Positions 5,358 to 60,245 of a stretch of DNA of 64,000 nt are shown here, piece by piece. The position numbers and the translations under genes were made by a program. The notes beneath the pieces were generated by a model, which was given only the letters and a program-made list of their open reading frames with translations, ran no database searches and was not told where the DNA came from. Where the stretch lies: the sequence record NC_052655.1; one strand, written 5' to 3'. How positions within the stretch are numbered: the stretch's first letter is position 1; each line of letters opens with the position of its first letter. The DNA comes from Escherichia phage alia.

Positions 5358-6488
5358 AAATGATAATCATTCTTATTTATAGCTGATTATTTATGCAATA
5401 AACTGCATAATGCAATAATGATAATCATTCTTAACTTAAGACCATCTAACTTATAAAATAATAAGTTATCTAACTAAATTAAAGCTAATTATCTTACTTT
5501 TATTTATAACATACTGTTACTATCTTATTGATAACCTTATATTAAACAACAATAATCAATGTAAATCATTACTAAGCTAACTATAATCTATCTAACCCTT
5601 AAAACTACAATTATAATCTATCAAATTGTTGCACAAAGTAACTATTAAATTGTTAGTAACATTGCTAAATAATTAATATCCTATCTATTTATGATCTAAT
5701 CTTTACCTCCCTATCTATTACCTAAATAACCATTTCATGTGGTAATCATTTCATACAATAACTATAACAAGAAATATAATTCGCAAGCGTATCATTAGCA
5801 GCCTATGCCGGACACATAGGCGGCTAATAATAACGCAACTACACACCCCACATAATAACCATCACCGATAGTTATTATTTGTGCTTATGTAGCTTGCAAC
5901 AATTGCAAGCGCAACAATATACATGGTATATTGTATCCCTTACATTGTTGCGGTGCGTTATTATTAGCTAATGTTTAGAACATTGGCTATAATATAAGCT
6001 AAGTAATAAGCTAGTCAATAATAAACATAATGAATAATGACATTAATGATCATAATGCGCCACCCTCCAGGGGGCGCTATGTGAACACAAAGAAATCATT
6101 CTTGTCAAGAAAAATATCACCCTATTGCGCAAAATTATTTATATCTGAATAGATGATTTTTCATACTATTGCCCCCTATAACATACCTCATTTGTTGAGC
6201 CTACTTTCTTAAAAGCGCAATAAAGTAGAATTATCTTGATTTTTAGTCGGTTTTATAGTACAGAAAGTATGCAAATGATAATCATTATCAGCTATCCTCC
6301 AGGGTGGCACTATTTCACGCCAGATCATTTCATTTGGCAAGGTGTATATAGATGTTTAGAAATGCCAAGCCATTGATTTACTTAGAATTTATCTGTTTTG
6401 TTGTGAGTAGTACCTTTCTTGCTTAGAAAATAATCAAAAGTCTTATAAGTCATTGAATGATAATGCAAATGATAATTATTCTCATTGA
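5358..6488. repeat. AT-rich non-coding region with iteron-like repeats (core AATGATAATCATT) and repeated CCTCCAGGG(G/T)G(C/G)CAC motif
   Basis: Copies of (A)AATGATAATCATT(C/A)T near 5358, 5415, 6269 and 6455 (degenerate copy near 5741); CCTCCAGGGGGCGCTAT at 6064 and CCTCCAGGGTGGCACTAT at 6297. No credible ORF. Confidence 0.55.
5803..5965. repeat. palindrome-rich segment (hairpin GCCTATG...CATAGGC; inverted TAATAATAACGCAAC / GCGTTATTATTAGC)
   Basis: Read directly from sequence: 7-bp inverted repeat at 5803-5826 and longer inverted repeat arms flanking 5830-5960 with the central TTGCAACAATTGCAA palindrome. Confidence 0.45.
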
Positions 6489-13838: not shown

Positions 13839-14045
13839 GAGTAGTAAGTAAGGTATAAAGAGTATATAGTTAGTTATAGAGTTAGTAACATTACATATAC
13901 TCTTTCCATGTATAACATGGAATATTCTCTACCTCGCTATCGCTCGGTATATAAGATTAGGGTAGCATGTTTTTTACGAAAAGTAAAACTGTTTATACCG
14001 ATTGATAGCAGGTTTTTAATAGATTTTATCTATGAGGAGTAGAAA

Positions 14046-49443: not shown

Positions 49444-50376
49444 TTAGCCTCCAAAGAAGTTTTCTATTTCTTTACGTCGCTCTTGTGGATCTAGAGCAGC
49501 CCATTGAACCTTCGTAAAGTTATTTCGAAGCCATTCTAGCAAAGTATAATATTCTTCGTCAACAATTTGTTTAGCATTGTTTGGGTTGTCCCAAATCATA
49601 TCCCACTTCTTATTGCCACCACGCATAAGGAATTTCTTAGCAAGATAGTATGGTGACTTAATCTTTAAGAGTAAGTTAAACGGATAGTTTGTTTCACGAA
49701 CAACAAAGCCTTCGTGTCTACAATGTTTAGACATTTCAACAACATCTGAAAATTTAATCATCGGATAAACTTCAGGACGTTTAAACTTTGTAACAGATGC
49801 AATCCCATCAAGAACACCTTCAGGTAACATGAAACTTGTCCCATCAAGATTTTGAATTCTTGCTCCAATTAAGTATGCGCCTGGTTCTTCTTCGACAATA
49901 TGTGGATCAGAAGGATCACAGATTTCAAAAAGGAAAGTTGCTTTTGCACTTTCTGTCCACTTAATGAAATACTCTATGTCGTCACACTCGGAAACAATAC
50001 GGTTCTTTGCCATAATTGCAAAATCTGATTCTAGGCTCCCTGTTGTTGATACAACAAGTTTCCCTTTGTACACACCTACAGATGCCATAAAACCGTTTAC
50101 TTTACGGACAGCATCTACAAGTTCATCTGCTGGAAGATCTGTACCATTCTCAAAACGATTAAAGATTTTAGTAAAAGGCCAAACAACAACATTGTCTTCT
50201 GAGTCAACAACCAACCCACGACAATCTAGAAGTCGTTTGTCAACGTTCCACAAATTATCCCAGAATACATTGTTTTTGTATTTAAGTACAGCAAGACCAG
50301 CATACTCTCCAGATTTAACTTCTTTTTTATGCACTAAACCTTTTGCAATCAGGTCATCACAATTGAACTTAGCCAC
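49444..50376 (-). CDS. RNA ligase (Rnl-type nucleotidyltransferase)
   Basis: Motif I RKVNGF (KxNG), motif IV EGFVVRE, motif V LLLKIK; 310 aa; immediately between the kinase and phosphoesterase genes. Confidence 0.65.
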   Translation of the reverse strand: MAKFNCDDLIAKGLVHKKEVKSGEYAGLAVLKYKNNVFWDNLWNVDKRLLDCRGLVVDSEDNVVVWPFTKIFNRFENGTDLPADELVDAVRKVNGFMASVGVYKGKLVVSTTGSLESDFAIMAKNRIVSECDDIEYFIKWTESAKATFLFEICDPSDPHIVEEEPGAYLIGARIQNLDGTSFMLPEGVLDGIASVTKFKRPEVYPMIKFSDVVEMSKHCRHEGFVVRETNYPFNLLLKIKSPYYLAKKFLMRGGNKKWDMIWDNPNNAKQIVDEEYYTLLEWLRNNFTKVQWAALDPQERRKEIENFFGG

Positions 50377-52260: not shown

Positions 52261-52598
52261 TTCTTTTTGCTCCTTCTTTTAGGCTTCTCGTATAAACCTA
52301 ACACAGCAGACTCTTTTGCACAGATAGGAACTGACTTCATTCCTCGTTTTTTGGCTTCTGGTAGATTCAAAACCCACCAGCCAAACCAATACAATTCATC
52401 TTCTGTGAAAGGATCTGCCATAGGATCTGCATCACGTTCTTCAAATTTAGCAAGAGCTTCTTCTATCTTTTCTATTGGAGTGTCAAAGACAAAAGCCTCT
52501 GTGTCAAATTTTTGTTTCTTAGGAGCGGCCTTTGCCGCCCCATCTTTAGATGCGTGCTTTGTTACGGATCGCTTCTTCGGTGTTTTCGCCATCAACAA
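52257..52598 (-). CDS. hypothetical basic protein (113 aa)
   Basis: ORF track; Lys-rich N- and C-termini. Confidence 0.45.
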   Translation of the reverse strand: MLMAKTPKKRSVTKHASKDGAAKAAPKKQKFDTEAFVFDTPIEKIEEALAKFEERDADPMADPFTEDELYWFGWWVLNLPEAKKRGMKSVPICAKESAVLGLYEKPKRRSKKK

Positions 52599-52785
52599 CC
52601 TCCATACGGTGTAAGAAATCTTGCTGGAATCGCCAATACTGTTGACCAGTCCTTACATCTTCGTAGATCACAACAGGATCAAACACTTTAGATACACCCG
52701 CTGGTTTAGGAAAACCAACTACACGATATAAACCACCTTTACTAATACAAGAATATGTTACATCAGTTAAAATTTCTTTTTTCAT
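52546..52785 (-). CDS. hypothetical protein (79 aa)
   Basis: ORF track. Confidence 0.45.
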   Translation of the reverse strand: MKKEILTDVTYSCISKGGLYRVVGFPKPAGVSKVFDPVVIYEDVRTGQQYWRFQQDFLHRMEVVDGENTEEAIRNKARI

Positions 52786-52979
52786 TTTTTAATAAACTCC
52801 AAAACAGGTACGTGATCAGCAGTCAAAGTTACACAATTGTAACTTACCTTTTCAACTTCAGAGAATGCTTCAACCCAAAGCAAGAAATTCTCTTTAGCTT
52901 CTTCATAATTCAATGTTGACTTAACAACATGGAACTCACCAAGAATTACTCTATAGATTGTTTGCATAGTTTGATTCAT
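52782..52979 (-). CDS. hypothetical protein (65 aa)
   Basis: ORF track. Confidence 0.45.
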   Translation of the reverse strand: MNQTMQTIYRVILGEFHVVKSTLNYEEAKENFLLWVEAFSEVEKVSYNCVTLTADHVPVLEFIKK

Positions 52980-53045
52980 TTATTTTTCCTTTGTTTAAAA
53001 TGTGTTAAACAATCGCAAATGCTTGTGACGCACTTTGTGATCCCA

Positions 53046-53414
53046 CTAATTAACGTCAGCACTATGATTGTTGAGAGTATAGGATACTCCATCGCCCAAG
53101 TCAACATGAATCTCAACTCCTAACTGTCTGTCTAATGGTAAACGTTTTGAGAATTGATAATTACAAAGTTTGCAATCTAAGTCAAGCAACTCATGTTTGC
53201 TTAGGCCTGGAATGATAACTTTGCTTCCCACTGTCCACTCAATACCTTCAAAGTTATCTCTTCTTTTCAAAATGTCAAGTAAGAAGATGATTTGTTGCCA
53301 TTCCGTAGACAAGTCTTCTTCATAGAATGCTGAACAAAAAGTTTTATCATCGTAGAAAGCATACATTATGCCTCCATCTATTGTTTCACTTCTAACGTAA
53401 CGTGTGACCCTCAT
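53046..53414 (-). CDS. hypothetical protein (122 aa)
   Basis: ORF track; first gene of the minus-strand block. Confidence 0.5.
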   Translation of the reverse strand: MRVTRYVRSETIDGGIMYAFYDDKTFCSAFYEEDLSTEWQQIIFLLDILKRRDNFEGIEWTVGSKVIIPGLSKHELLDLDCKLCNYQFSKRLPLDRQLGVEIHVDLGDGVSYTLNNHSADVN

Positions 53415-53545
53415 TATTCCCTCCTGTATGGCTCTGTAACGAGCTAATAGCCTCTAAGATATGCAATCACCTTACCTCACAGTAAAACTCGTTACAATCG
53501 TTTTTAGGAGGTTTAGGTTGTACTTAAAAATAATCCAAAAAGGTG

Positions 53546-53606
53546 TTGACAAACGCAAAAAAGTATGCTACCCTAACCCCCGAAAAACGCCGAGCGCAGC
53601 GAGGGG
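53546..53606 (+). promoter_or_regulatory. promoter plus 5' stem-loop with no downstream ORF
   Basis: TTGACA 53546-53551, 17-nt spacer, TACCCT; hairpin CCCCC-GAAAAACGCCGAGCGCAGCGA-GGGGG at 53576-53606; the next 150 nt are AT-rich with no ORF before the promoter at 53756. Confidence 0.35.
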
Positions 53607-53755
53607 GTGTTATCTAATCTTGTGATACATGATCTAACAGACAACTGAGTAGTCTACATATAGCACTATGTTATGTCTATAATACTAACATACGTACTCT
53701 ATACTAACAATAGATTCTTTATTAATTTTATTATTAATTAAATAATAAATATCTA

Positions 53756-53784
53756 TTGACTTTAGATCTATCTGTATGTAGAGT
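53756..53784 (+). promoter_or_regulatory. sigma70-like promoter (TTGACT, 17 nt spacer, TAGAGT)
   Basis: TTGACT 53756-53761, 17-nt spacer, TAGAGT; AAGGAG RBS then ATG 53824. Confidence 0.5.
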
Positions 53785-53823
53785 AGAGAACATAAAGTCC
53801 TAACTCAACTAAGGAGATAAACA

Positions 53824-54717
53824 ATGAAAGTTAGTATTCTACATGGTGTTGACTGTTATGTTACTGATGTAGACGTTAAAGTCTTTACATTCTCTGGTGG
53901 AGAACAACATGTTCAACTAGACACGAATCTATCAGGTTTCAATCATGCTACAGACAGAATCTTACTCTCTTTAGAAGTAAGATCTGCTAAAGACTTGATG
54001 ACTTTGGTTATGACTAAGAATGCATTGGACAATATGCTATATCATAAACCATATTGTGTTGATTTGCTCATGTTGTATGTGCCATATGCACGACAAGACA
54101 GAGTGTGTGAACCTGGGGAAGCATTCGGAGTTAAAGCATTTGCTTCTATAATTAATTCATTAAATTTCTCACGTGTTATCGTTGCTGATCCACATAGTGA
54201 TGTTACTCCAGCGGTGTTTGACAGACTCTGTGTAATACCTCAAGAAGAGATTGCTTACGAAACTTTAAAGTGGAAGTTACGTATGGAGAATTTTGCTCTT
54301 GTTAGTCCTGATGGTGGTGCTCTTAAGAAAATATTTAAATTATCTAAGAAAATGTCTTTAGATGTGTTCTGTGCAGAGAAGGTTAGAGATACTGCAACAG
54401 GTGCTATTGTTCGTACAGACATTTCTGTACAGGATTTCAATAAGCGTAACCTGATGATCGTAGATGATATCTGTGACGGCGGTAGAACTTTTATTGAATT
54501 GGCTAAAGTGCTACGTGCTCGTAACGCAGGTAAGATTGAGTTATATGTTACACACGGTATCTTTTCTAAAGGTCTTAAAGAGTTAAGTGAGCACTTTGAC
54601 TGCATTCATTCTCTTAATGTGTGGGAAGATAACATCCAAGAAGATTCCGGTGTTCTTGTTAAGAATCAGTCAGATTTGCAACAACAAATTGTATCTCCAT
54701 ACGTGTGGAATTTTTAA
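53824..54717 (+). CDS. ribose-phosphate pyrophosphokinase (PRPP synthetase)-like protein
   Basis: 297 aa; phosphoribosyl-binding loop MIVDDICDGGRT (compare Prs VDD-x-x-DTGGT); N-terminal half parallels Prs. Confidence 0.7.
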   Translation: MKVSILHGVDCYVTDVDVKVFTFSGGEQHVQLDTNLSGFNHATDRILLSLEVRSAKDLMTLVMTKNALDNMLYHKPYCVDLLMLYVPYARQDRVCEPGEAFGVKAFASIINSLNFSRVIVADPHSDVTPAVFDRLCVIPQEEIAYETLKWKLRMENFALVSPDGGALKKIFKLSKKMSLDVFCAEKVRDTATGAIVRTDISVQDFNKRNLMIVDDICDGGRTFIELAKVLRARNAGKIELYVTHGIFSKGLKELSEHFDCIHSLNVWEDNIQEDSGVLVKNQSDLQQQIVSPYVWNF

Positions 54718-54727
54718 ATAATAAGTG

Positions 54728-54762
54728 TTGACAATAGGGAGTATGCTTAGTAAGATACTCCC
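54728..54762 (+). promoter_or_regulatory. promoter overlapping a stem-loop
   Basis: TTGACA 54728-54733, 17-nt spacer, TAAGAT 54751-54756; inverted repeat GGGAGTAT...ATACTCCC (54737-54762) encloses the -10. Confidence 0.45.
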
Positions 54763-54788
54763 ACACTAACAAACAAGGAGACATAACT

Positions 54789-56522
54789 ATGAATATTTTT
54801 GCACCTTTTGCTACTGATTGGTATAAACCTGGTCACAAGCAGATGTACAACCAAAATACAAAACTTATTTTCTCTAATTTAACTCCTCGTAATGATAAAA
54901 ACTTTGCACACTATGCAGATCGTGAAGCACGTGGTGTAATTGTTTTAGGTATTCGTCGAGCAGTTACTGATGCTCTTGTAACTATGTGGGATAGCTTCTT
55001 TAAAATGTCTCGTAGTGCAGCAGTAAATAAGTTTTATCGTATGTCTAAAAATGCATTAGGTGCTTCTGCTCCTTCTGCTGAATGTTGGGGAGAATTGCAC
55101 GATTTAGGTTATCTTCCGCTGGAAGTTCGATCTCTGCCAGAAGGTGTTTTGTGTCCTATTGGTGTTCCTGTGTTTACTGTGCATAATACTTTAGAAAAAT
55201 TCTTTTGGTTAACTAACTATGTGGAAACACTATTGTCAGATGAAACTTGGAAGACAATGACTAATGCTACAGCAGCTTTTCAGTATAAGCGTATTGCTAT
55301 GGCATATGCGATGGCAACGTGTGATAATATTGATCACGTTAACTTCCAGTGTCATGATTTTAGCCTACGTGGTTTAAGTAATATCGAAGATGGTTATAAG
55401 AGTGGTATCGCTCATTTGGCATCTTTCACAGGAACAGATAACATTCTGGCTATTGAGACTGTGCATGATTATTATGGTATTGATTATGATCAGTTTGTTG
55501 CAGGTTCTATTCCGGCAACAGAACATTCAGTAGCAACGACTAACATTGGAGCTATTGTTGAAGATCTGAAGAAACATTTCCCACATCTTAAAGATGATGT
55601 TGATGGGCTTCGTTATGTAGCAGAGAAAGAGTTTCTTCGCCGCTATATCGAAGAAATTGTTCCAGAAGGTTTTTGTTCATATGTAGCAGATTCTTATGAC
55701 TACTGGGCTGTCTTGACTCGCATTCTGGTAGAATTGAAAGAATCCATTATGTCACGAAATGGTCGTCTTGTTATTCGTCCAGATTCAGGAGATCCGGTTA
55801 AAGTTGTTGCAGGATACAATGTTGAATCTTTTGATAACTATGAAGACCTTTTAAATAATGGTATTGCTACAGCCACTGAAGTAGTTCATTTGGCTGATGT
55901 TAATAAGTATTACAATGTTCTTCAGGATTGCAGTGTTGCTGATTGTATTGATGAAACTTATGAGATTCCTTATTGTGAAGCAGTAGGTTCTATTCAAATC
56001 CTTTGGGAAGTGTTTGGTGGTACTATCAACCGAAAAGGCTACAAGGTTCTTGATCAGCACATCGGTATGATTTATGGTGATTCTATTACTGTTGAACGAG
56101 AACACGAGATCTTACGCCGACTGAAGAAGAAAGGTTTTGCAGCTTCCAATATTGTATTTGGTGTTGGTAGTTATACTTATCAGTTCAATACACGAGATAC
56201 TTTTGGTTTTGCTGTTAAAGCAACAGGTAGTATCATCGGTGAACACGAAATTTTGGTAAGTAAGGAGCCTAAAACTGATCCTGGTAAACGTTCTGCAAAA
56301 GGTTTTATTAAGGTTGTTAAGGATACAAACGGTAAACTTTCTCTCGTGGATAATCTTTCTTTTAAAGATATTCAAGATGAAGACAATGAGTTAAAAGTTA
56401 TCTTCAGGGATGGTACGGTTATTACACCACAAGTAGAAGGACGTGATGAAACATTTACGGATATCCGCAACCGTGTTGATGTAGAGGTTCTTCGTACTAT
56501 GGGAACCATCCAGGTTGACTAA
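54789..56522 (+). CDS. nicotinamide phosphoribosyltransferase (NAMPT/NadV)-like protein
   Basis: 577 aa; N-terminal FATDWYKPGHKQMY parallels the NAMPT TDSYK-x-x-H motif; size and glycine-rich central segments are consistent with the type II phosphoribosyltransferase fold. Confidence 0.7.
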   Translation: MNIFAPFATDWYKPGHKQMYNQNTKLIFSNLTPRNDKNFAHYADREARGVIVLGIRRAVTDALVTMWDSFFKMSRSAAVNKFYRMSKNALGASAPSAECWGELHDLGYLPLEVRSLPEGVLCPIGVPVFTVHNTLEKFFWLTNYVETLLSDETWKTMTNATAAFQYKRIAMAYAMATCDNIDHVNFQCHDFSLRGLSNIEDGYKSGIAHLASFTGTDNILAIETVHDYYGIDYDQFVAGSIPATEHSVATTNIGAIVEDLKKHFPHLKDDVDGLRYVAEKEFLRRYIEEIVPEGFCSYVADSYDYWAVLTRILVELKESIMSRNGRLVIRPDSGDPVKVVAGYNVESFDNYEDLLNNGIATATEVVHLADVNKYYNVLQDCSVADCIDETYEIPYCEAVGSIQILWEVFGGTINRKGYKVLDQHIGMIYGDSITVEREHEILRRLKKKGFAASNIVFGVGSYTYQFNTRDTFGFAVKATGSIIGEHEILVSKEPKTDPGKRSAKGFIKVVKDTNGKLSLVDNLSFKDIQDEDNELKVIFRDGTVITPQVEGRDETFTDIRNRVDVEVLRTMGTIQVD

Positions 56523-56593
56523 ATAAAAACTTCGTGATAAGATTAAGGTAAGGAGAGCCTGCAACTGCCCTGGATGGGCTTCACGAAGGATTT

Positions 56594-56815
56594 ATGAAAC
56601 AACATAATTTTTATTTTCGTTGCCGAGCCTGTAACAGACACTTGACTAATCATTCCCGTAGAGACAGGAATGGTAATATTCAAGAGTCGGATCTATGCTC
56701 GATTTGTACAAGTTTGGCATTCGACGACAGTCCCGAAAGGGTTTATCAACATCAAAGTGTAACTGATCTTCTTCTAAATTACACAGCACCAGAGGAGGAA
56801 TTAGATTTCACATAA
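56594..56815 (+). CDS. small zinc-finger-like protein (73 aa)
   Basis: ORF track; CRACNRH...CSICTS Cys pairs. Confidence 0.45.
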   Translation: MKQHNFYFRCRACNRHLTNHSRRDRNGNIQESDLCSICTSLAFDDSPERVYQHQSVTDLLLNYTAPEEELDFT

Positions 56816-56828
56816 TTAAGGAAACAGT

Positions 56829-56936
56829 ATGTCTACAGAAATTATTTTTGGCTTATCTGTTTTTATTGCTATTGTATCTTTTGTATGCGGTTATACACTA
56901 GGTTACAGATCAAGAAAAAATATTGTAAAAAACTAG
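56829..56936 (+). CDS. small membrane peptide (35 aa)
   Basis: Not in ORF track. AAGGAAACAGT precedes ATG; translation MSTEIIFGLSVFIAIVSFVCGYTLGYRSRKNIVKN. Confidence 0.3.
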   Translation: MSTEIIFGLSVFIAIVSFVCGYTLGYRSRKNIVKN

Positions 56937-56966
56937 TTGACAACATAGCTAGTTATTTGCTAAGAT
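56937..56966 (+). promoter_or_regulatory. sigma70-like promoter (TTGACA, 18 nt spacer, TAAGAT)
   Basis: TTGACA 56937-56942; TAAGAT -10; AAAGGAG RBS then ATG 56997. Confidence 0.45.
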
Positions 56967-56996
56967 AAGCACAAGTTAAACAAAAAGGAGAAAACT

Positions 56997-57263
56997 ATGA
57001 CAGAAAAGACTTATGGTAAAGAATTGATTGAGAAGCACGTATTGATTGATAATAAAGGTGGAGCAATCTTTATTTTTGAACCTGAATCAGTTCTTACTGA
57101 AAACGAAAATGGTAGCGTTAGCCTTAAAACAGAAAGTTTGGTAATTGACTTCCTTGCTCTTCTGGATGAAATGGGGCTTCCTCACGAAGAAGAAGCAGCT
57201 ATTGCTTTGATTGCAGTTCTTCTGGAGAAACGCGAAGCTGGTGAAATGACCCAGTATGCTTAA
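56997..57263 (+). CDS. hypothetical acidic protein (88 aa)
   Basis: ORF track; AAGGAG RBS. Confidence 0.55.
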   Translation: MTEKTYGKELIEKHVLIDNKGGAIFIFEPESVLTENENGSVSLKTESLVIDFLALLDEMGLPHEEEAAIALIAVLLEKREAGEMTQYA

Positions 57264-57271
57264 TATTCAAG

Positions 57272-57347
57272 GTTCCATAGCTCACTGACGAGAGCGCACA
57301 CCTCATAAGTGTCGAGGGCAGGGATTGTAACCCTGGGGAACCACCAT
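57272..57347 (+). tRNA. tRNA-Met/Ile2 (anticodon CAT)
   Basis: Hand-folded cloverleaf: acceptor GGTTCCA/GGGAACC (one mismatch), anticodon loop CTCATAA, 3' CCA encoded. Confidence 0.55.
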
Positions 57348-57377
57348 TTAAAAGGAGGTGCTATGCATCTCCTATAT

Positions 57378-57463
57378 GCAAGTGTGGTGGAATTGGTGAT
57401 ACACATTGTGCTTAAAACGCAACGCTTAAATGCTTGAGGGTTCGAATCCCTCCACTTGCACCA
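57378..57463 (+). tRNA. tRNA-Leu (anticodon TAA)
   Basis: Acceptor GCAAGTG/CACTTGC, anticodon stem TTGTG/CGCAA with loop CTTAAAA, long variable arm, T-loop GGTTCGAATCC, CCA encoded. Confidence 0.7.
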
Positions 57464-57478
57464 ACACCTAAAAATATC

Positions 57479-57507
57479 TTGACATTTACTTAGTTTTTTG
57501 TTATAGT
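57479..57507 (+). promoter_or_regulatory. sigma70-like promoter inside the tRNA cluster
   Basis: TTGACA 57479-57484, 17-nt spacer, TATAGT. Confidence 0.5.
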
Positions 57508-57518
57508 CGTTATGAAAA

Positions 57519-57600
57519 CGGGGTGTATCTCACCTGACTTCTAATCAGGCGTTAACCGAGTAATTGGAGTATGCAGGTTCGAATCCTGTCACCCCGGCCA
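57519..57600 (+). tRNA. atypical tRNA-like gene (possible anticodon TCT)
   Basis: Perfect acceptor CGGGGTG/CACCCCG and T-arm GCAGG-TTCGAAT-CCTGT with CCA, but only one internal hairpin (CCTGA-CTTCTAA-TCAGG) and no recognisable D-arm; isotype uncertain. Confidence 0.4.
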
Positions 57601-57618
57601 AAAAGTTTTAAAAACTAC

Positions 57619-57647
57619 TTGACAAGCAAGATAGTTTTATGTTAGAT
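57619..57647 (+). promoter_or_regulatory. sigma70-like promoter inside the tRNA cluster
   Basis: TTGACA 57619-57624, 17-nt spacer, TTAGAT. Confidence 0.45.
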
Positions 57648-57663
57648 TTAAAGTATGATAACG

Positions 57664-57753
57664 GGAAGGTAGGGCGCAGCGGTGCGCAACCAGGTTTGAA
57701 CCCTGGCCCATTGTAGCGATACGGTGATGGTTCGACTCCATTATCTTCCTCCA
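57664..57753 (+). tRNA. tRNA-Ser (anticodon TGA)
   Basis: Acceptor GGAAGGT/ATCTTCC (G-U at pair 6), anticodon stem CCAGG/CCTGG with loop TTTGAAC, long variable arm, T-loop GGTTCGACTCC, CCA encoded. Confidence 0.65.
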
Positions 57754-57798
57754 AATTCAATTAGTAACAGATTCAGGTTGTTTTGAATAATTAAAAAT

Positions 57799-57884
57799 GG
57801 TAGATTGGTGAAATGGTAGCCACAACAGTTTGCTAAACTGTCGTCGGAAACGGCGTGTAGGTTCAAGTCCTACATCTACCGCCA
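57799..57884 (+). tRNA. tRNA-Ser (anticodon GCT)
   Basis: Acceptor GGTAGAT/ATCTACC, anticodon stem ACAGT/ACTGT with loop TTGCTAA, long variable arm, T-loop GGTTCAAGTCC, CCA encoded. Confidence 0.7.
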
Positions 57885-58054
57885 AGTTATCTTTAATGTA
57901 GCTTGTTGCTCTTAGTTGCTTGGTGTAACTTTTTGGAAGAATGGCTGCAACCATCTTACTTTAATAGAGTAAACTTTCGGCAGATGGCCCCCACCATCTT
58001 ACCGATACCTCATAGTCAGTGGTGCGAACACTGGCTATTTTAAAGATAATTTAT

Positions 58055-58129
58055 ACATCGTTAGCCAAGCGGTAAGGCACTTGACTTTTAATCAAGGGAG
58101 CGAAGGTTCGAATCCTTCACGATGTACCA
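58055..58129 (+). tRNA. tRNA-Lys (anticodon TTT)
   Basis: Acceptor ACATCGT/ACGATGT, anticodon stem CTTGA/TCAAG with loop CTTTTAA, T-loop GGTTCGAATCC, CCA encoded. Confidence 0.65.
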
Positions 58130-58134
58130 AACAC

Positions 58135-58221
58135 GTAGGTATCGCATAGCGGCAATTGCTGGAGACTGTAAATCTCCTGCCCTTCGGGGCTTCGTTGGTT
58201 CGAGTCCAACTACCTGCACCA
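58135..58221 (+). tRNA. tRNA-Tyr (anticodon GTA)
   Basis: Acceptor GTAGGTA/TACCTGC (one G-U), anticodon stem GGAGA/TCTCC with loop CTGTAAA, long variable arm, T-loop GGTTCGAGTCC, CCA encoded. Confidence 0.65.
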
Positions 58222-58228
58222 AATTAAA

Positions 58229-58313
58229 GATGGATTGGCCTAGTGGTTGGGCGACGGACTGTTAATCCGTGAACGAAAGTTCTAGCAAGGTTCAAATCCT
58301 TGATCCATCGCCA
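58229..58313 (+). tRNA. tRNA-Asn (anticodon GTT) with unusually long variable region
   Basis: Acceptor GATGGAT/ATCCATC, anticodon stem ACGGA/TCCGT with loop CTGTTAA, extra hairpin GAAC-GAAA-GTTC in the variable region, T-loop GGTTCAAATCC, CCA encoded. Confidence 0.55.
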
Positions 58314-58392
58314 AATAGTGCTTGTAGAGTTAATAGAAACCTCTAGAATTTTCTAGAATTGTAGGTATCAAACCCTACCAAGCAAATATTTT

Positions 58393-58467
58393 GCTCCTAT
58401 CGTATAACGGCTATTACGGTTGCCTTGTAAGCAACTTATCAGGGTTCGAGTCCTTGTGGGAGCACCA
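58393..58467 (+). tRNA. tRNA-Thr (anticodon TGT)
   Basis: Acceptor GCTCCTA/TGGGAGC (one G-U), anticodon stem GTTGC/GCAAC with loop CTTGTAA, T-loop GGTTCGAGTCC, CCA encoded. Confidence 0.7.
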
Positions 58468-58489
58468 ATTTAACTCTAAAGGAGTGTAT

Positions 58490-58813
58490 GTGACAGAAAA
58501 AGAGTTAGAGAAATATTTTAATATCAATGTTTTCGATGGTTTTGATGCTATTGAAGATGTTGAAAGATATTATGAAGTAGAGTTAGATAAGGATAACATT
58601 GTAATTCTTTCTGCCACTTATGATTGTGCATATTATGAAGGCGAATCTCACGTTTATTTCTATGATATGAAAACATCTTTGTTTTATGAAGTACACGCAT
58701 ATCATTGTTCTTGTTATGGCTTAGAAGGTCAGTGGGAACCTGAAGAAATAGGTGATTTGAGCTTTACGGTTGCATATCTAAACAGACGTGGCGCATCTAC
58801 TATTTTAAAATAA
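58490..58813 (+). CDS. hypothetical Cys-rich protein embedded in the tRNA cluster (107 aa, GTG start)
   Basis: ORF track 58391..58813 overlaps tRNA-Thr; start moved to GTG 58490, 5 nt after AAGGAG. C-terminal YHCSCYG cysteines. Confidence 0.5.
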   Translation: MTEKELEKYFNINVFDGFDAIEDVERYYEVELDKDNIVILSATYDCAYYEGESHVYFYDMKTSLFYEVHAYHCSCYGLEGQWEPEEIGDLSFTVAYLNRRGASTILK

Positions 58814-58827
58814 ATATTAAAAGCCTC

Positions 58828-58856
58828 TTGACAAAGGGGCTAATAATATGTTAGAG
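58828..58856 (+). promoter_or_regulatory. sigma70-like promoter inside the tRNA cluster
   Basis: TTGACA 58828-58833, 17-nt spacer, TTAGAG (TAATAT alternative). Confidence 0.45.
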
Positions 58857-58868
58857 TAATATTGTTAA

Positions 58869-58943
58869 GCGGGTATAGTGTTAATGGTAGCATATGAGGT
58901 TTCCACCCTCCAGGTGCAGGTTCAAGTCCTGTTACTCGCTCCA
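58869..58943 (+). tRNA. tRNA-Gly (anticodon TCC)
   Basis: Acceptor GCGGGTA/TACTCGC (one G-U), anticodon loop TTTCCAC, T-loop GGTTCAAGTCC, CCA encoded. Confidence 0.6.
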
Positions 58944-59042
58944 AGATTATTTAAATGGAATCGCTAGAGAAAATTTCTCTTTTCGCTCATGGTTTTCTCC
59001 TTCAAACTCTAGCGGTTCTTTTTAAGTGATTTTTAGTTTTAT

Positions 59043-59117
59043 TGGAGATTAGCCTAGTGGGAAGGCAACGGCCTTTGAAGTCGTGATGACTAGGTTCGAT
59101 TCCTAGATCTCCAGCCA
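59043..59117 (+). tRNA. tRNA-Gln (anticodon TTG)
   Basis: Acceptor TGGAGAT/ATCTCCA, anticodon stem ACGGC/GTCGT with loop CTTTGAA, T-loop GGTTCGATTCC, CCA encoded. Confidence 0.65.
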
Positions 59118-59124
59118 ATATTTA

Positions 59125-59200
59125 CAGTGCGTAGCGCAGTTGGTAGCGTGGGAGCTTTGGATGCTTCGGGTCGCAGGTTCGAGTCCTGCCGCACTGACCA
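59125..59200 (+). tRNA. tRNA-Pro (anticodon TGG)
   Basis: Acceptor CAGTGCG/CGCACTG, anticodon stem GGAGC/GCTTC with loop TTTGGAT, T-loop GGTTCGAGTCC, CCA encoded. Confidence 0.7.
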
Positions 59201-59205
59201 AATTT

Positions 59206-59280
59206 GCAGAGATAGCTGAGACGGATTAGTGCTACCCTGAAAAGGTAGAAAGGATGGATCGTTACCATCTCTCTGCACCA
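59206..59280 (+). tRNA. tRNA-Phe (anticodon GAA) with non-canonical T-loop
   Basis: Acceptor GCAGAGA/TCTCTGC, anticodon stem CTACC/GGTAG with loop CTGAAAA, T-arm GATGG-ATCGTTA-CCATC (not the usual TTCGAAT), CCA encoded. Confidence 0.55.
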
Positions 59281-59357
59281 AATAACACCATCCAAGGAGT
59301 AGACTTGGTTAACTGTCAATAGCACATTGAGGCTTCTTACAGTGGTGTACTTATTAT

Positions 59358-59442
59358 GGCTAAGTGGTGGAATGGTATACACGATACGCTTAGAACGTAT
59401 TGCCCCAAGGGATTGTGAGTTCGAGTCTCACCTTAGCTACCA
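59358..59442 (+). tRNA. tRNA-Leu (anticodon TAG)
   Basis: Acceptor GGCTAAG/CTTAGCT (G1-U72), anticodon stem ATACG/CGTAT with loop CTTAGAA, long variable arm, T-loop GAGTTCGAGTCTC, CCA encoded. Confidence 0.65.
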
Positions 59443-59457
59443 AATTATTACAGGTTT

Positions 59458-59536
59458 CGCGGGATAGAGGAGTCTGGTCGTCCTCGCCAGTTTCATATGC
59501 TGGAGATCATCGGTTCGAATCCGATTTCCGCCTCCA
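59458..59536 (+). tRNA. tRNA-Met/Ile (anticodon CAT), C1/C72 mismatch
   Basis: Anticodon stem CCAGT/GCTGG with loop TTCATAT, T-arm ATCGG-TTCGAAT-CCGAT, CCA encoded; first acceptor pair is C-C, and D-loop is long. Confidence 0.5.
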
Positions 59537-59613
59537 ATAAATACCTCCATTCTGGTGTAATGATTAAATTACATTGACACTTCAAGGAACTCATAGCCGG
59601 GTAGATTTAAAAG

Positions 59614-59680
59614 AGTATGGTACTCAATATGGCTCCAAACCATAGATCAGGGGGTTCGATTCCTCACCTTGCTGCCAATT
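59614..59680 (+). tRNA. degenerate or D-arm-less tRNA-like element (possible anticodon CCA, Trp)
   Basis: Canonical T-loop GGTTCGATTCC and 3' GCCA, internal hairpin TATGG-CTCCAAA-CCATA, but acceptor pairing is imperfect and no D-arm fits; only about 64 nt before CCA. Confidence 0.3.
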
Positions 59681-59682
59681 AT

Positions 59683-59758
59683 TGTGGTATCGTACAGATG
59701 GTTAGTACACTCGACCGATAATCGAGAAACAACGGTTCGACTCCGTTTACCACGACCA
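59683..59758 (+). tRNA. tRNA-Ile (anticodon GAT)
   Basis: Acceptor TGTGGTA/TACCACG (T1-G72), anticodon stem CTCGA/TCGAG with loop CCGATAA, T-loop GGTTCGACTCC, CCA encoded. Confidence 0.6.
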
Positions 59759-60149: not shown

Positions 60150-60176
60150 AAAAGCCTCCTTTTTGGAGGTTTTTTA
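60150..60176 (+). terminator. rho-independent terminator
   Basis: AAAGCCTCC-TTTTT-GGAGGTTTTTT. Confidence 0.6.
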
Positions 60177-60245
60177 TTATCTATAAAATAAAGATCTTTA
60201 CAAAACGTATAAAATATGTTATCCTTAAGTAAGGAGGTGCATATT

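Follow-up and report, generated by a model that had tools for sequence, protein, structure and literature searches.

Short hairpins that act close to the start of a transcript are known from several systems. The nut (boxA-boxB) sites of phage lambda and the put sites of HK022 are small conserved hairpins that lie shortly past early promoters, occur several times per genome and act in cis on the polymerase. Stabiliser stem-loops, such as the hairpin in the 5′-untranslated region (5′-UTR) of ompA, stand a few nucleotides from the 5′ end and work independently of the sequence downstream. In the PeSL cassettes of T4-type phages, a σ70-type promoter and a stem-loop are combined in multiple copies in the early region, and the stem-loop precedes the promoter and terminates the previous gene. 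Hairpins of the ops type are read by NusG paralogues, examples being RfaH ops (GGCGGTAGCGTG) and opsE (CTGCGAAGCATA) of Bacteroides (PMC11213015), and the mini-hairpin motif, defined in a separate study, is reported in DNA at the complementary-strand origins of G4 and St-1, at ssiA of RSF1010 and at promoters of the N4 virion RNA polymerase (PMC13037366). Here we analyse a locus in a 64,000-nucleotide (nt) stretch of Escherichia phage alia (NC_052655.1), called the window below, which represents a phi92-like coliphage of the genus Justusliebigvirus, subfamily Stephanstirmvirinae. An initial annotation had proposed a stand-alone small RNA (sRNA) at 53546-53760, made of a promoter, a strong GC-clamped hairpin and ~150 nt of AT-rich sequence without an open reading frame (ORF). 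We found that the promoter and the inner part of the hairpin (HP1) form a module that recurs within the genome and across related genera. We favour, tentatively, the reading that the locus is a cis-acting promoter-proximal leader module, in which a 5′-terminal RNA stem-loop would protect or mark the transcript.

Recurrence and conservation of the promoter-hairpin module

The annotated promoter (P1) is present and appears to be a host σ70-type promoter, in which a good −35 element, 17-bp spacing and a weak hexamer, TACCCT, are accompanied by a TG at 53566-53567, overlooked at first, that would make it an extended −10 promoter. Transcription would begin ~7 nt past the −10, at a predicted 53581-53583, and plus-strand transcription of promoter and hairpin is very likely. 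P1 fails a consensus promoter scan because TACCCT matches TATAAT at only 3 of 6 positions, and the scan gave no excess in the region (10 sites, with 9.6 expected from shuffles). The clamped hairpin is also present, with an RNA fold of −14.7 kcal/mol, but its strength is ordinary: 15 of 200 dinucleotide shuffles folded equally well (z −1.6). The canonical P1 start falls within the 5′ arm of the clamp, and an RNA beginning at 53582 folds at just −6.9 kcal/mol. The GC clamp is not conserved in L140, KP13-26 and B15 and is restricted to Justusliebigvirus; it is the inner tandem-G.A hairpin, and not the clamp around it, that is conserved. Taken alone, promoter match and hairpin energy are unremarkable and make weak evidence; once paralogues and relatives are considered, the locus is non-random.

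A mismatch search of the window with the promoter returned two further sites with an extended shared motif, 13987..13959 on the minus strand (site B) and 60197-60225 on the plus strand (site C). The pattern CCGAGC-N3-8-GCGAGG occurs twice in the window, with 0.00 occurrences expected, and each time 11-15 nt past ATGCTACCCTAA: at site B, CCGAGCGATAGCGAGG begins 11 nt after the promoter, and at the flagged locus (site A) CCGAGCGCAGCGAGG follows after 15 nt. The shorter form GAGCG(N1-2)AGCGA was found exactly three times per genome (0.1-0.3 expected). In the near-identical phage A145, for which the genome is complete, the three copies lie at 104171 (plus), 64611 (minus) and 36709 (minus); the copy that falls outside the window reads ACGAGCGAAGCGAGT, its outer C-G pair being replaced by A-T. 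Phapecoctavirus B15 also carries exactly three copies. The distance from the −10 to the hairpin is 9-16 nt across copies and, judging from linker lengths, the extended HP1 stem would start ~2-7 nt past the predicted start in most of them. Site C has the promoter without HP1, adjoins a gene of ~96 amino acids (aa) and has a terminator-like hairpin just upstream (~60154-60175), which indicates that this promoter class can occur hairpin-free when the leader is short.

IMG/VR pattern scans and BLAST of phage records placed the module in Klebsiella phage KP13-26, in Phapecoctavirus (phAPEC8_ev052, phiWec188) and in the distant contigs L143 and L144, and it is also found upstream of Prs in a relative whose Prs is 64% identical. 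A first IMG/VR pattern, CCGAGC...GCGAGG...TA, was discarded as too unspecific, since it matched ~120 mostly unrelated loci. Three types of context recur in both Justusliebigvirus and Phapecoctavirus. In type A, which KP13-26 shares, P1-HP1 occupies the main divergent control region; after it come 130-190 nt of non-coding, A+T-rich sequence and then a second promoter (P2), a Shine-Dalgarno sequence (SD) and a gene. In type D (site D of A145 and the B15 copy B15#2), P1-HP1 opens a structured leader of 75-115 nt, 75 nt at site D, that ends in AGGAG and the ATG of a small protein. In type B, P1-HP1 has an antisense orientation within a gap of the early-gene block, with two more hairpins and no ORF after it.

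The blocks conserved among the window, KP13-26, L140 and B15 are the −35, TGCTACCCTA, HP1, the A/T tract with P2, and the SD. Within P1, the −35, the 17-nt spacing and TGCTACCCTA(A) are kept in the three relatives while the sequence of the promoter spacer varies, and the −35, the 17-bp spacing, the TG and the form T-A-N3-T are common to paralogues and genera. P2, correctly annotated at 53756, keeps its position and sequence, as TTGACC-17-TACACT in KP13-26 and TTGATC-17-TACAGT in B15. The stretch from HP1 to P2 is poorly conserved and differs in length between lineages. At site A it is AT-rich as annotated, and the ORFs in it, of 22-24 aa, are all unsupported; ATACTAACA occurs in it twice (53682-90 and 53701-09), and it ends in an AT-repeat tract (~53716-53755, units like TTATTAAT) immediately upstream of P2. 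The length of this tract varies even among near-identical genomes, through a 12-nt AT indel at 53718 and insertions of 11-12 nt in L124 and L125. Variability, counted as variable columns per 100 nt among four near-identical genomes, is given by segment in Table 1.

At site A, HP1 consists of two Watson-Crick pairs, tandem G.A/A.G pairs, two more Watson-Crick pairs and a GNA triloop. Its general form is N-C-GA-GC-(GNA or GNNA)-GC-GA-G-N′, 13-14 nt long with a loop of 3 or 4 nt. Comparison of 12 distinct copies showed that the core is invariant in all of them and that the three inner Watson-Crick pairs are constant. Just outside the G.A pairs, five copies have C-G, four A-U, one U-A and two no pair, and the pair two positions further out is formed in all copies by four pair types. 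The covariation score of HP1 was 0.379, compared with 0.178 for shuffles, of which 1 in 500 reached it, and partner-slid controls gave at most 0.19. In addition, a C of the 5′ arm and a G of the 3′ arm are both missing from L143, which amounts to a compensated base-pair deletion. The exact core was also present in copies found through protein homology, BLAST or a promoter-only scan, so its invariance is not merely an artefact of the search. The outer pairs of HP1 thus covary around a fixed core.

Possible roles of the hairpin

Because the module heads ordinary mRNA leaders elsewhere and the extended HP1 stem would begin ~2-7 nt past the predicted start in most copies, a 5′-terminal stem-loop is favoured. 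P1 would be the upstream member of a tandem pair with P2, in the main divergent control region of the genome, reading into Prs, NadV and the tRNA array. Its transcripts would begin within a few nt of the 13-nt HP1, with its C-G pairs, tandem sheared G.A pairs and GNA/GNNA loop, and HP1 would act in RNA rather than DNA, folding in the nascent transcript as a compact, very stable 5′-terminal stem-loop that may protect or mark it, for example against 5′-end-dependent decay. The A+T-rich ~150 nt would then be mostly unconstrained leader, together with the upstream A/T tract of P2. If HP1 only stabilises 5′ ends, it would offer a compact and portable stabiliser for engineering.

Several observations weigh against this role. 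The 10 core bases that are invariant across old paralogues exceed what stability needs, which suggests recognition by a factor. For the antisense type B copy there is no gene that it could serve. Extra complementarity extends, in several copies, to the predicted start, and hence outside the RNA, as in the clamp of site A, in TCCTAT/ATAGGA of L144 and in CCTGAAAGG or CCCGAAGGG between the −10 and HP1 of site D and B15#2. We know of no evidence on RNA GNA triloops comparable to that on their DNA counterparts, and the nearest-neighbour energies of HP1 are modest, from −3.7 to −7.9 kcal/mol. It is in DNA that C-G-closed GNA triloops are extraordinarily stable (PMC13037366).

It is conceivable, although unlikely, that HP1 instead loads a factor for elongation or antitermination, in the manner of lambda nut, HK022 put or RfaH ops. 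The factor would read HP1 just after initiation, either on the nascent transcript or from a mini-hairpin formed by the non-template DNA strand, and would leave the polymerase resistant to Rho and to pausing, permitting long untranslated transcription through the 240-nt leader, the 2.5-kb tRNA array and the antisense RNA of site B. Untranslated tRNA arrays need protection from Rho, as is established for rrn operons. In favour of this reading, the core sequence stays constant where flanking pairs covary and loops differ, and every one of the several copies in a genome is linked to a promoter. The core also holds GCGNAGC or GCGNNAGC, the motif of ops-type non-template hairpins, and site B agrees with Escherichia coli ops at 9 of 12 positions; moreover, the extra complementarity that overlaps the start suits a hairpin at the DNA level better than one in RNA. 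However, tblastn and phmmer searches, made at the sequence level only, revealed no NusG/RfaH homologue in either phage genome. The loop bases that RfaH reads, G5 and T6, are not conserved, two copies have 3-nt loops, site B lacks the pyrimidine-then-G step at ops T11/G12, and inspection of the sequence listings revealed no boxA-like motif near HP1. Nor are the tails consistently C-rich and G-poor, as Rho sites are in composition, their C/G ratio being 0.44-1.43.

The distribution of the hairpin word in other viruses also bears on a dedicated partner. In IMG/VR, CCTAA-N6-22-CGAGCGAAGCGAG matched 77 loci, and the same pattern with CGAGCGAAGAGCG, a non-hairpin control word whose mono- and dinucleotide composition is the same, matched 2, a difference of ~40-fold. 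The CGAGCGAAGCGAG loci lie in contigs of 28-68% G+C, giant-virus bins included; about a quarter of the distinct matches have at least 3 extra outer pairs, so that they cap longer stems, and one is terminator-like (AAAAAA-core-TTTTTT). Such an excess of the 13-mer in unrelated viruses argues against a dedicated partner, and a hairpin useful in its own right, or a universal partner, is more likely than a protein specific to the phage. It suggests that the motif matters beyond this phage group, and the element could be a widespread, unrecognised signal. It is conceivable, although unlikely, that phages of the Stephanstirmvirinae possess an undescribed system of processive transcription control, which recognises the invariant tandem-G.A mini-hairpin. 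Such a system would license long untranslated transcription, over the tRNA array and, as antisense RNA, over early genes, and HP1, if it loads a factor, would be a new antitermination-type signal.

Tandem-G.A hairpins were also seen in other settings. In unrelated large phage contigs of 135-163 kb (L153 at 1758-2710; L154, L156 and L157), they stand in pairs before successive small genes, for example TTACGAGCGATAGCGAGTAA followed by CCTTTTAT-GA-GC-GGA-GC-GA-ATAAAAGG, and L209 has similar pairs at ~5690..5596 on the minus strand. One copy of these arrays shows a compensatory change in the inner stem, from GC/GC to AC/GT, and the array loci matched no Rfam family. In L239 (1531-1586 of a 92-kb contig, 49% G+C), TTGACT-N14-TGCTACCCTAA is followed directly by CCAC-GA-GUGC-CAUA-GCAC-GA-GUGG; with the same promoter type and tandem G.A geometry but other stems and loop, it is likely a distant relative of the module.

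The initial interpretation is borne out only in part, and the stand-alone sRNA that it proposed seems rather improbable. P1 would have to yield a discrete RNA of ~60-200 nt, ended before P2 by Rho, by processing or by a non-canonical terminator, whose action would be in trans or, as antisense RNA, in cis. A short RNA might also be derived from the leader. A promoter with a structured 5′ end and no ORF is compatible with such a transcript, as is the U-rich sequence that follows HP1 in type A copies. However, no intrinsic terminator-like site was found on the plus strand of 52500-55000, which includes the interval from the hairpin to Prs. The body is unconstrained in sequence and length, and the poor conservation of the 130-190 nt after the hairpin leaves no conserved sRNA body or single-stranded seed visible. 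No Rfam family reached its threshold, and the paralogue at site D is an mRNA leader. The only terminator-like match in the scan was on the minus strand, at 53601..53588, where the complement of HP1 and the A-rich linker score as a hairpin with a U-rich tail. A comparable minus-strand site lies at the same place in KP13-26 (L148 1239..1223), with a different pairing register, and is not clearly conserved.

Part of what speaks for an sRNA comes from site B, which is a better sRNA or antisense-RNA candidate than the flagged locus. It lies antisense to its neighbours, the plus-strand early genes gp023 and gp024, in the 207 bp that separate them, and its context and three-hairpin layout recur in Phapecoctavirus with compensatory changes in HP2 and HP3. 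When a 1.2-kb query was compared with phAPEC8-like phages, only the ~200-nt non-coding type B element matched, which indicates that it is better conserved than the genes around it. As HP2 and HP3 are palindromes, type B folds on both strands with z about −3, and the strand of the promoter can be told only from the tandem G.A pairs and the GNA loop of HP1. Type B copies aligned poorly with MAFFT, and RNAalifold predicted 5 pairs only from that alignment; single-sequence folds were compared by hand instead. For gp023, HP2 also scores as a terminator when read on the plus strand.

A replication origin activated by transcription, of the kind represented by the T7 primary origin and by T4 oriF/oriG, is quite improbable. 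Here, transcription from P1 would melt the DNA as it crosses the A+T-rich region, or supply a primer for synthesis, and the mini-hairpin of the displaced non-template strand would mark where the phage primase-helicase loads. T4 has multiple origins, which several copies of the module would parallel. All three lineages have 150-190 nt of 75-79% A+T between two promoters, and short repeats occur there, ATACTAACA twice in the window and GTACT five times in B15; however, these are short and not conserved between lineages, and no origin-binding protein or iteron set was identified. Copy D, furthermore, lacks the A+T-rich unwinding region and runs straight into a gene. Mini-hairpins of the GCGNAGC and GCGNNAGC types are present at the priming sites of G4, St-1 and RSF1010 ssiA (PMC13037366). 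The locus coincides with a switch in gene orientation and with a minimum of cumulative GC skew near 54 kb, but skew follows the direction of transcription everywhere in this phage type, as also reported for rV5 (PMC3606486), and is therefore uninformative as an origin marker.

Finally, it is very unlikely that a phage regulator binds CGAGCG(N)AGCGAG at ~+10 to +25 as a double-stranded DNA operator and blocks or modulates P1 because, although the sequence is invariant, keeps a roughly fixed place after one promoter class and can be read as a direct AGCG repeat, its half-site spacing shifts with loop length (5 or 6 nt), its distance from the −10 ranges over 9-16 nt, covariation in its flanks is between paired bases, the tandem G.A geometry persists in L239 and L153 although their stem sequences differ, and the motif is not a DNA palindrome.

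Setting of the locus and annotation of the divergent region

The coordinates of the module, its paralogues and the neighbouring genes are collected in Table 1.

Table 1. Features of the flagged locus, its paralogues and its neighbourhood in the window; the last column gives variable columns per 100 nt.
Feature	Position	Strand	Description	Variability
gp106	53046..53414	minus	left flank of the divergent gap	
Upstream of P1	53417-53545			3.1
54-aa ORF	53461..53625	plus	overlaps P1 and hairpin; annotated in phage Eryne	
P1	53546..53574	plus	candidate promoter; −35 TTGACA 53546-51; 17-nt A-rich spacer; −10 TACCCT 53569-74	
P1-HP1	53546-53608			1.6
GC clamp	53576..53608	plus	ACCCCC 53576-53581 pairs with GGGGGT 53603-53608; encloses HP1; the hairpin of the initial annotation	
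HP1	53590..53604	plus	mini-hairpin C-C-GA-GC-GCA-GC-GA-G-G	
Spacer/leader	53609..53755	plus	A+T-rich, non-coding; 147 nt, 77% A+T; most variable segment	13.6 (12-nt AT-repeat indel included)
P2	53756..53784	plus	candidate promoter TTGACT-17-TAGAGT; then SD AGGAG 53812-16 and Prs start codon 53824	
P2-SD	53756-53823			2.9
gp107 (Prs)	53824-54717	plus	ribose-phosphate pyrophosphokinase; start codon 53824	
NadV	54789-56522	plus	3′ of Prs	
15 tRNA genes	57271-59758	plus	after NadV and small ORFs	
Downstream unit	53824..59758	plus	Prs-NadV-small ORFs-tRNAs; would be fed by P1 and P2	
Site B	13858..13987	minus	P1 13987..13959; HP1 CCGAGCGATAGCGAGG 13947..13932; HP2 13922..13904; HP3 arms 13903..13895 and 13867..13859	
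Site C promoter	60197..60225	plus	TTTACA-17-TATCCT, with TG and A-rich spacer; no HP1; then AGGAGG and ATG 60246	

The 601 bases around the locus matched 55 phage records, 54 of them at 95-99.5% identity. The position between a minus-strand block and the NAD-gene unit agrees with the initial annotation: in phi92 the locus corresponds to the 410-bp divergent gap between gp106 (minus) and gp107 (Prs, plus), and the phi92 record carries no annotation there. On the basis of their orientation, Prs, NadV, the small ORFs and the tRNA array would be co-transcribed.

The 54-aa ORF, of which AGGAGG at 53506-11 and a TTG at 53518 could open a 35-aa version, was rejected, since it is not conserved in KP13-26, L140 and B15 and is frameshifted in the close relative L124. 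It is probably a spurious call that can be removed from annotations. A leftward promoter inside the spacer (TAGACA-17-TAGACT, 53679..53651; a TACAAT site in KP13-26) is possible but need not be invoked. Left of P1 there are better candidates for leftward transcription, in the window GTTACA-16-AATAAT (53440..53413) and in KP13-26 TTGACA-17-TATCAT. The candidate at 53440..53413 would serve the shorter gp106B start and not gp106A. One arm of a 9-bp inverted repeat (TGTAACGAG at 53435-53443 and CTCGTTACA at 53488-53496) between gp106 and P1 overlaps it; this repeat, which was absent in KP13-26, may be an operator of the divergent control region.

Two further observations concern database records. 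The phi92 record places a 'hypothetical tRNA' inside the NadV coding sequence (49736-49886, ~55380-55530 of the window), and ARAGORN run on the window predicted no tRNA there, so this annotation is probably an artefact. Records MG065645.1, MG065650.1 and related ones, marked UNVERIFIED and named 'Campylobacter phage', are 98% identical to phi92-like and phAPEC8-like phages of E. coli, and their host labels look unreliable.

Phages of the phi92-like and phAPEC8-like groups are widely isolated for therapy and their transcription programme is essentially unmapped; we found no transcriptome study of Stephanstirmvirinae in the literature. No prior description of the promoter-hairpin module was found in the literature on rV5 and phi92 promoters, subfamily transcriptomes and GA-cis. 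The three conserved promoter-hairpin units per genome, one of them upstream of the NAD-salvage genes and the tRNA array, provide a testable entry point to the regulation of these phages.

Comparison with described elements

Rfam was searched at permissive thresholds, and the only relevant match was GA-cis (RF02987), whose 3′ hairpin consensus, CcGAgcGaAagcGAgG, equals the HP1 core and whose flanks resemble site A. Site A scored 21.3 bits, compared with a gathering threshold of 34.7 (E 0.053 in 601 nt), and the 5′ AGGAGG/CUCC helix of the family could be aligned only by way of an insertion of 61 nt, which covers P1. At the E-value limits applied, GA-cis was matched neither by site B nor by any of 14 other loci that carry HP1 or a related GA hairpin. 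As the match is below threshold and confined to site A, it is a resemblance and not membership.

Compared with PeSL cassettes, the order of the parts is reversed, the hairpin lying downstream of the promoter, from which it would be transcribed. With the stabiliser stem-loops HP1 shares its closeness to the 5′ end, as given by the predicted start, and its independence of the sequence downstream. Stabiliser hairpins are not, to our knowledge, sequence-invariant or multi-copy, whereas HP1 keeps 10 bases fixed across paralogues and genera.

Like nut and put, HP1 is a small conserved hairpin shortly past promoters, present several times per genome. It differs from them in having no boxA, no GNRA-like pentaloop on a 5-bp stem and no two-stem put fold, its structure being a 2+2+2 helix with tandem G.A pairs and a 3-4-nt loop; it would also lie far closer to the start site. 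We know of no N-like protein in phi92-like phages.

HP1 falls within the mini-hairpin definition (GCGNAGC / GCGNNAGC, a G-C and C-G stem closing GNA or GNNA), with the cores GCGCAGC at site A, GCGATAGC at site B, GCGAAGC at site D and GCGAAAGC in L144. The generic motif is present at 20-30 copies per genome, about the number expected, and the GA-flanked form alone is specific. DNA sites of this kind share with HP1 the GC-GNA-GC or GC-GNNA-GC sequence with its C-G closing pair, a place in phage DNA and an association with starts of RNA synthesis. They are active in single-stranded DNA, where primases or a hairpin-specific polymerase read them, whereas HP1 follows an apparently ordinary σ70-type promoter; phi92-like phages are not known to us to carry an N4-type polymerase.

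Among these systems, the ops-type elements (RfaH ops; opsX of Bacteroides UpxY) likewise carry a GCGNNAGC/GCGNAGC mini-hairpin on the non-template strand of a leader (PMC11213015, PMC13037366). With respect to the ops consensus, GGCGGTAGnnTG, site B (AGCGATAGCGAG) departs at three of the 12 positions, having A5 and A11, and it shows A-G in place of the T11/G12 pause step. The exact 8-mer GGCGGTAG is found elsewhere 2-3 times per genome, about the level of chance. Sites A and D have 3-nt loops, and the flanking tandem G.A pairs are specific to HP1. The module fits none of the families tested (Rfam GA-cis, nut and ops), and we regard it as a variant form of a known kind of element.

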